64,000 nt of DNA from Octopus vulgaris (taxonomy: Eukaryota): positions 83,886,001 to 83,950,000 of the forward strand of contig OX597826.1 of the NCBI GenBank assembly GCA_951406725.2, written 5' to 3'. The position numbers and the translations under genes were made by a program. The notes beneath the pieces were generated by a model. That model made no database searches and had not been told where the DNA came from. It saw only the letters and a program-made list of their open reading frames with translations. Each line of letters opens with the position of its first letter. Position 1 is the stretch's first letter. Shown here in pieces: positions 52,815 through 53,347 of this stretch.

Positions 52815-52860
52815 ACTCACCTGAAATAGAAGAGAAACAAAAATGGTAAATAAACACATC
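52815..52860 (-). promoter_or_regulatory. Candidate recursive splice site (3'SS directly followed by 5'SS)
   Basis: Minus strand reads ...TTTATTTACCATTTTTGTTTCTCTTCTATTTCAG|GTGAGTAAAT; junction at 52821/52820; about 48 nt free of AG upstream. Confidence 0.6.
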
Positions 52861-53347
52861 AAATGGAAAGACTAACAAGAAACTGGAGAGAGAGAAGGCT
52901 TTGAGAATTAATTTGGTGATGTTTATGTTGTTTATAATAATTATCATTGTCATCACTATCATTTTCCTCCTCGTCATCATCATGACCATCATCATCATCT
53001 CTGTCATTAGTCATCAATCAACACAGTCATCAACATCATTATCATCACTGTTATCGTTATTATTATCATCAGCATCAACATCCTCATCATCACTATCATC
53101 ACCACCATCAGCAGCAGCAGCATTATCAGCAACATCATGCTGAGTCAATAGTAAACTGGGGTAGGAAGGTCGAGGCTTTGTGTGGTTCATATGACTTGCT
53201 GAAGATAGCAGCCAATATTCCATTCAAAATTCTCTCTCCCACTCTCTAAAATGAGGATCACACATTTTAAGATATTAATGAGAGGTGGCCATGGTTTGTT
53301 GAGACAGCTGACACCTCTCAGCTATTATGTCTTCTTCGTATTGAAGC

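Follow-up and report, generated by a model that had tools for sequence, protein, structure and literature searches.

Recursive splicing, the removal of a giant intron in steps, is an established process of flies and also, though in a different balance, of mammals, and the introns of vertebrates that hold recursive-splicing exons (RS-exons) lie in the 100-kb range, as in octopus. A literature search, with subscription papers outside its reach, found no report of recursive splicing in octopus, squid, cephalopods or molluscs. The octopus is an invertebrate with a genome of 2.8 Gb and introns longer than 100 kb, and so offers a test of whether the fly strategy of many silent ratchet points and the vertebrate pattern of few follow lineage or intron size. 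The 64,000-nt stretch of Octopus vulgaris DNA analysed here (the window) carries, on its minus strand, a pyrimidine tract that ends in CAG and runs directly into a consensus donor at position 52,820. The locus therefore raises the question of whether this is a point at which a giant intron is cut out stepwise. From the DNA and the end product of splicing we infer that the site is likely a ratchet point of recursive splicing, accompanied by a 49-nt cryptic exon.

The host gene and its giant intron

The search for a host gene covered the window with 100 kb added on each side. An exon with BTB and BACK domains, followed by Kelch exons, lies 68 kb outside the window's start on the minus strand, and residues 130-434 (305 aa) are 100% identical to kelch-like protein 8 of Octopus sinensis, on which basis the host gene was assigned as KLHL8. 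A strong acceptor precedes the ATG of its first coding exon by ~60 nt. Four runs were compared at this exon: two of them, from two studies (X9, with a 3,069-nt contig, and X1, with one of 314 nt), leave the genome at the acceptor and carry an identical 70-nt loose end beyond it; X6 stops short of the junction and X2 gives nothing. Thirty letters of the loose end map once in the genome, at G000:C13:84003945-84003974, and the upstream exon mapped in this way adjoins CTG|GTGAGTAG and a CpG-rich stretch. Both junction-crossing contigs (2/2) join this exon directly to the first coding exon of KLHL8, with GT..AG at the ends of the intron. Runs X9 and X1 were only assumed to be RNA, but the join over 186 kb at GT..AG ends identifies a spliced transcript.

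The contigs of the two studies thus define an intron that contains the whole window and has the 52,820 site on its sense strand (Table 1), which bears out the proposal of the earlier note of a very long minus-strand intron around the window. It is probably intron 1 of KLHL8, a further upstream exon being conceivable, and the site divides it into a first part of 65,123 nt and a second of 120,986 nt. Around 43% of the 186 kb is tandem repeat or matches elsewhere in the 264 kb searched. On the plus strand A exceeds T in 18 of 19 intron bins, which fits transcription from the minus strand but carries little weight, since two of five bins beyond the upstream exon share this skew.

Table 1. Positions of the intron, the site and its associated elements (window coordinates unless a contig is given).
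Feature	Position	Strand	Basis or detail
186,109-nt 5'-UTR intron of the KLHL8 gene	covers window 1..64000	minus	contigs, GT..AG ends
Intron donor	G000:C13:84003943 (window-equivalent 117,943)	minus	
Intron acceptor	G000:C13:83817835 (window-equivalent -68,165)	minus	
Candidate ratchet point CAG|GTGAGT	52815..52823	minus	cut 52821|52820
AG-free zone with polypyrimidine tract	52823..52871	minus	sequence; AG-to-AG distance
Candidate branch adenines	52,859, 52,851, 52,847	minus	branch point predicted from the consensus
Second (cryptic-exon) donor TTG|GTGAGT	52766..52774, GT at 52,771-52,770	minus	donor score 4.4
Candidate cryptic recursive-splicing exon, 49 nt	52772..52820	minus	no ATG, not a multiple of three

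No coding exon was evident in the 64 kb, as had been noted before: by inspection of their translations, the long ORFs there are frames of microsatellites or resemble those of retrotransposons. Several reverse-transcriptase frames, which we take to be of a LINE-like family, occupy window positions 4,060-16,063 and 53,209-54,760; some are long (635 and 538 aa), very long (TA)n runs separate them, and another fragment begins ~400 nt upstream of the 52,820 site. Six proteins were scanned against Pfam, and two of them, the ORFs L008:8103-8519 and L020:8143-8397, gave no match. An uninterrupted ORF with a CS domain, presumably NudC-like, is found 22 kb upstream of the upstream exon of KLHL8 and points away from it (L009:6249-6746, plus strand). 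At the N-terminus of the KLHL8 protein itself, a proline-rich stretch and a long low-complexity tract of Ser, Thr and Asn precede the BTB domain (L018:1771-1380, minus strand). In the spliced transcript an upstream ORF of 20 codons runs from one exon into the next and ends 30 nt short of the KLHL8 ATG (L022:1500-1530 joined to L018:1834-1775, both minus strand).

Architecture and strength of the site

On the minus strand the AG occupies 52,822-52,821 and GTGAGT 52,820-52,815, within the sequence that the earlier note had singled out (52,866-52,815) as an AG-free pyrimidine tract followed by GTGAGT, a description that we confirm. Pyrimidines make up 84% of the 25 nt that precede the AG, and the AG-to-AG distance is 51 nt. 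The site is the sole YAG|GTRAGT within the window. Across the 264 kb, YAG|GTRAG after a tract of at least 60% pyrimidine occurs just twice, both times on the minus strand, and an AG-free zone distinguishes the 52,820 site from the other (46,332), where an AG stands 3 nt upstream. That weaker motif, TAGCAG|GTAAGG (window 46,334-46,327, minus strand), lies 6.5 kb after the 52,820 site and has tandem AGs and a poorer tract. The expectation that the surrounding sequence is unique also held, 301 nt around the site giving a single genome match in a search that skips very common words.

Acceptors were scored by a rule of our own, and donors by a generic weight matrix untrained on octopus. On these scales the acceptor of the site reaches 15.5 and ranks 8th among 9,819 sense AGs in the intron, the real terminal acceptor scoring 14.8; read as a donor, CAG|GTGAGT scores 8.9. 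Among 578 sense AG|GT sites in the intron it is the best. Loose score thresholds are passed by two sense AG|GT sites and by 0 of 566 antisense ones, and the sense-strand scan of the 578 sites across the 186 kb found no second strong AG|GT. The second-best lies at window-equivalent 97,086 (listed as L007:7086, minus strand; its window-equivalent is in L005) and combines a good tract with a weak GTGTGT donor, in a masked repeat and without a second donor.

A second GTGAGT, absent from the earlier note, lies 49 nt downstream of the 52,820 site, so that a ratchet point with a cryptic exon of 49 nt is a better reading than the bare zero-length site proposed before. TTG|GTGAGT is the top donor in the 300 nt that follow the site (4.4, against 0.7 for the runner-up). 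The steps proposed here are modelled on fly work, as described in PMC8605326 and PMC6110457. The tract with CAG and the donor 49 nt on would together define a small exon. The upstream exon would then be joined to the AG at 52,821, with the loss of the first 65 kb, probably while the rest of the intron is still being transcribed. This ligation would recreate CTG|GTGAGT, the same nine letters as at the donor of the intron itself. Since the recreated donor would outcompete the weaker TTG|GTGAGT, the 49 nt would be removed together with the last 121 kb, and the resulting mRNA would look like the product of removing one intron. The order of the donor scores (6.7 for the recreated donor, 4.4 for the second) fits the donor competition set out in PMC8605326; a recreated donor stronger than that of the cryptic exon is the rule at fly-type sites, though with exceptions, and the octopus comparison, made with a generic matrix, is a rough one.

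The 49-nt segment is skipped in both junction-crossing contigs (2/2), although contigs drop rare forms. The segment could instead be an alternative 5'-UTR exon expressed in some tissues, with or without re-splicing. Its acceptor equals the true terminal one in strength and a consensus donor follows 49 nt on, a 5' UTR imposes no coding-frame cost, the sole open frame of the segment continues the upstream ORF, and expressed recursive exons are known in flies and mammals (PMC8605326). Besides its omission from the two contigs, this interpretation is at odds with the donor at the 5' end of the segment, which outscores the one at its 3' end, and with the putative segments found genome-wide, which are mostly not frame-preserving; we regard it as quite improbable. 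If the segment were included, the upstream frame would grow from 20 codons to 32, which might adjust translation; its stop would then lie 43 nt before the KLHL8 ATG. We also considered the 49 nt as coding sequence and rejected this: when the segment is spliced to the coding exon, its sole open frame stops before that ATG.

The same motif might also be the donor of an ordinary small exon that starts at an upstream AG, with the pyrimidine run as exonic sequence; with a start at 52,871 this exon would measure 51 nt, and with one at 52,882 it would measure 62 nt. CAG|GTGAGT is indeed a textbook donor, and pyrimidines precede both upstream AGs. However, as acceptors the upstream AGs score 10.2 (rank 122) and 7.5 (rank 322), whereas the site itself reaches 15.5 (rank 8), the 62 nt are 60% T, the second donor is left unexplained, and such an exon is absent from the mRNA contigs, which together make an ordinary exon highly unlikely.

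Chance would provide a third account, in which a T-rich stretch ends in CAG|GTGAGT by coincidence, the second GTGAGT is an accident, and the 186-kb intron is removed without use of the site. Shuffling the window gave 0.053 comparable sites per window on both strands (150 block shuffles). At the scale of the intron, a strong AG|GT occurred in 14% and 16.5% of shuffled 186-kb sequences (200 shuffles for each of two block sizes), for which reason the bare motif is only suggestive. The joint pattern of a strong AG|GT with a second donor 25-80 nt on appeared in 3/200 and 5/200 shuffled introns (1.5% and 2.5%) and 0 times on the real antisense strand, which argues against an accident. These frequencies are to be read with the thresholds having been set after the site was seen, and with the site having been picked from many windows for looking good. 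Weighed with the genome-wide counts given below, chance appears an unlikely explanation, and the ratchet point with a cryptic exon is retained as the preferred reading.

Coverage of the site region itself was compared in runs X1, X2, X4 and X5 at 80% likeness, using contigs, which show neither levels nor rare intermediates; runs of organisms B and C were included, at low depth, with gaps and with matches dominated by a nearby repeat. Five of the 24 runs listed contain part of the stretch, and none of these is on record as RNA. Among the repeat-dominated matches no contig of the four runs covers 52,712-52,807, X4 covers part of 52,808-52,855, and one 99-nt contig of X2 matches 52,585-52,675 without differences. 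Neither the run list nor these matches weigh for or against expression or conservation. A scan of metagenome contigs returned 0 matches to the site sequence. The region of ~51,840-52,150 holds a very high-copy short repeat with huge contig depth in all four runs.

Genome-wide occurrence of the motif

The motif class is enriched across the genome, together with putative fly-like cryptic exons. Y9NCAG|GTRAGT occurs 226 times, against 106 when the G at donor position +5 is changed, 128 when AG is changed to TG and 136 when both are changed (2x2 design: odds ratio 2.27, p=1.6e-6); ~100 sites are expected without selection, as the chance account would have it, and ~126 are in excess. This CAG-only design replaced a YAG pattern (505 matches, against 217 for its reversed control), which was dropped because one identical 19-mer made up 18 of its first 100 matches. 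The 19-mer (tract, TAG, GTAAGT) is spread over many contigs and is probably a repeat family with a ready-made ratchet-like motif, which could seed such sites. Among 90 of the CAG sites only two pairs resemble each other, so the motif excess is not the product of one repeat family.

The test for a second donor 25-80 nt downstream was fixed after the first 30 loci of three classes (9/30, 3/30 and 4/30 with such a donor) and then applied to 60 further sites (from C3-C9) and 60 further controls (from C4-C23). In all, 90 of the 226 sites and 90 of the 106 controls were examined, one tandem-duplicate control row being skipped. Second donors were present at 18/60 held-out sites and 9/60 controls (one-sided p=0.040), and the held-out sites also exceed the same-locus background of 10.9% (p=5e-5); at the set threshold the other 42/60 lack one. 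The excess is found with T-rich tracts (15/39 against 3/24 controls, p=0.024), and none was seen with less T-rich tracts (3/21 against 6/36). T exceeds A on the motif strand at 46/60 sites and 33/60 controls (rank test p=0.0025), and TT stands at -6/-5 in 63/90 sites and 34/90 controls. The motif G|GTRA, chosen afterwards, is found at 24/55 T-rich sites and 1/38 controls, and overall at 27/90 and 7/90 over a background of 7.7%. Absence of an open frame in the 90 nt upstream was a poor separator (27/55 sites, 13/38 controls).

The 27 putative cryptic segments are 28-80 nt long, a range set by the test window, with a median of 47; 7/27 are a multiple of three, 10/27 have stops in all frames, and 16/27 end in TTG, ATG or GTG (L023-L052, L113-L172). 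These endings are the weak exon side of the second donor, as in the cryptic exon at the 52,820 site. Neighbouring motifs 30-500 kb apart share a strand in 10/12 pairs, against 5/13 among controls (first 100 rows of each list; pairs closer than 30 kb, mostly tandem copies in controls, were left out of the count).

Some of the sites are surely ordinary exon ends or starts. Ordinary exon ends may account for part of the count and of the strand bias, but not for the second donor. By our own arithmetic, T-rich sites with a second donor number ~58 against ~5 expected, and roughly nine in ten of them are thus in excess, which is hard to reconcile with accident. Because an A at -7 keeps the 52,820 site outside the 226, the class statistics reach it only by analogy; the site is probably one member of a class of at least a hundred in the octopus genome. 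Given the genome-wide enrichment of this layout, stepwise removal of some giant introns is likely in octopuses, in the way known from flies. The broader proposal is that ratchet points with cryptic exons of ~47 nt form a fly-like set across the octopus genome, at least 100 and perhaps several hundred in number, and cut giant introns into pieces several times the fly size; this we hold to be evenly balanced.

Relation to recursive splicing in flies and vertebrates

In its sequence layout the 52,820 site likely belongs with the fly-type ratchet points that carry a cryptic exon, five features of which were found. Drosophila ratchet points with cryptic RS-exons (Bx, kuz, Ubx; PMC8605326, PMC6110457) share with it a tandem AG|GT in a very long intron and an exon of ~50 nt that is closed by a second, weaker donor and skipped in mRNA. 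Bx also shares the 5'-UTR position. The same sources describe an enrichment of first introns in Drosophila, to which the probable first intron of octopus KLHL8 corresponds, and the octopus site, at 35% of intron length, may be likened to the ratchet points of the fly. Cryptic exons in flies are ~50 nt and generally out of frame (PMC8605326), and the segments at octopus sites (median 47, 7/27 a multiple of three) resemble them. The host, in contrast to Drosophila, is a mollusc. The pieces also differ in size, Drosophila segments being typically 9-15 kb according to PMC6110457 and those of the octopus 65 and 121 kb, and the octopus site is known from DNA and mRNA contigs. The earlier note suggested that stepwise removal could explain tolerance of the TE load; a single strong site would still leave 121 kb in one segment.

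The exon definition followed by competition between the recreated donor and that of the exon, which the octopus model assumes, has its counterpart in vertebrate RS-exons (Sibley 2015 and Blazquez 2018, as cited in PMC8605326). In mammals most RS-exons are expressed, and PMC8605326 notes only nine fully suppressed sites in long introns; the octopus class looks larger than this suppressed set, in the manner of flies. If the octopus-wide class is real, recursive splicing would be at work in molluscs, in a repeat-rich genome of vertebrate size. It would then look like a tool that goes back to ancestral bilaterians and takes longer steps in larger genomes. The 52,820 site can be targeted precisely and at low cost by RT-PCR, and the motif counts yield a candidate list.

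The mechanism as such is a known one, and a survey of 2009 had already described enriched motifs in other invertebrates, which keeps the surprise moderate. In that survey (PMC2773006), which covers no mollusc, a sense-strand excess of acceptor-donor fusions is described for mosquito, bee, beetle and sea urchin, at 0.48-1.03 per 100 kb. Table 2 of the survey counts motifs on two strands, whereas the octopus analysis also tests the downstream donor. With one site in 186 kb, the KLHL8 intron has 0.54 per 100 kb, like the invertebrates surveyed there.
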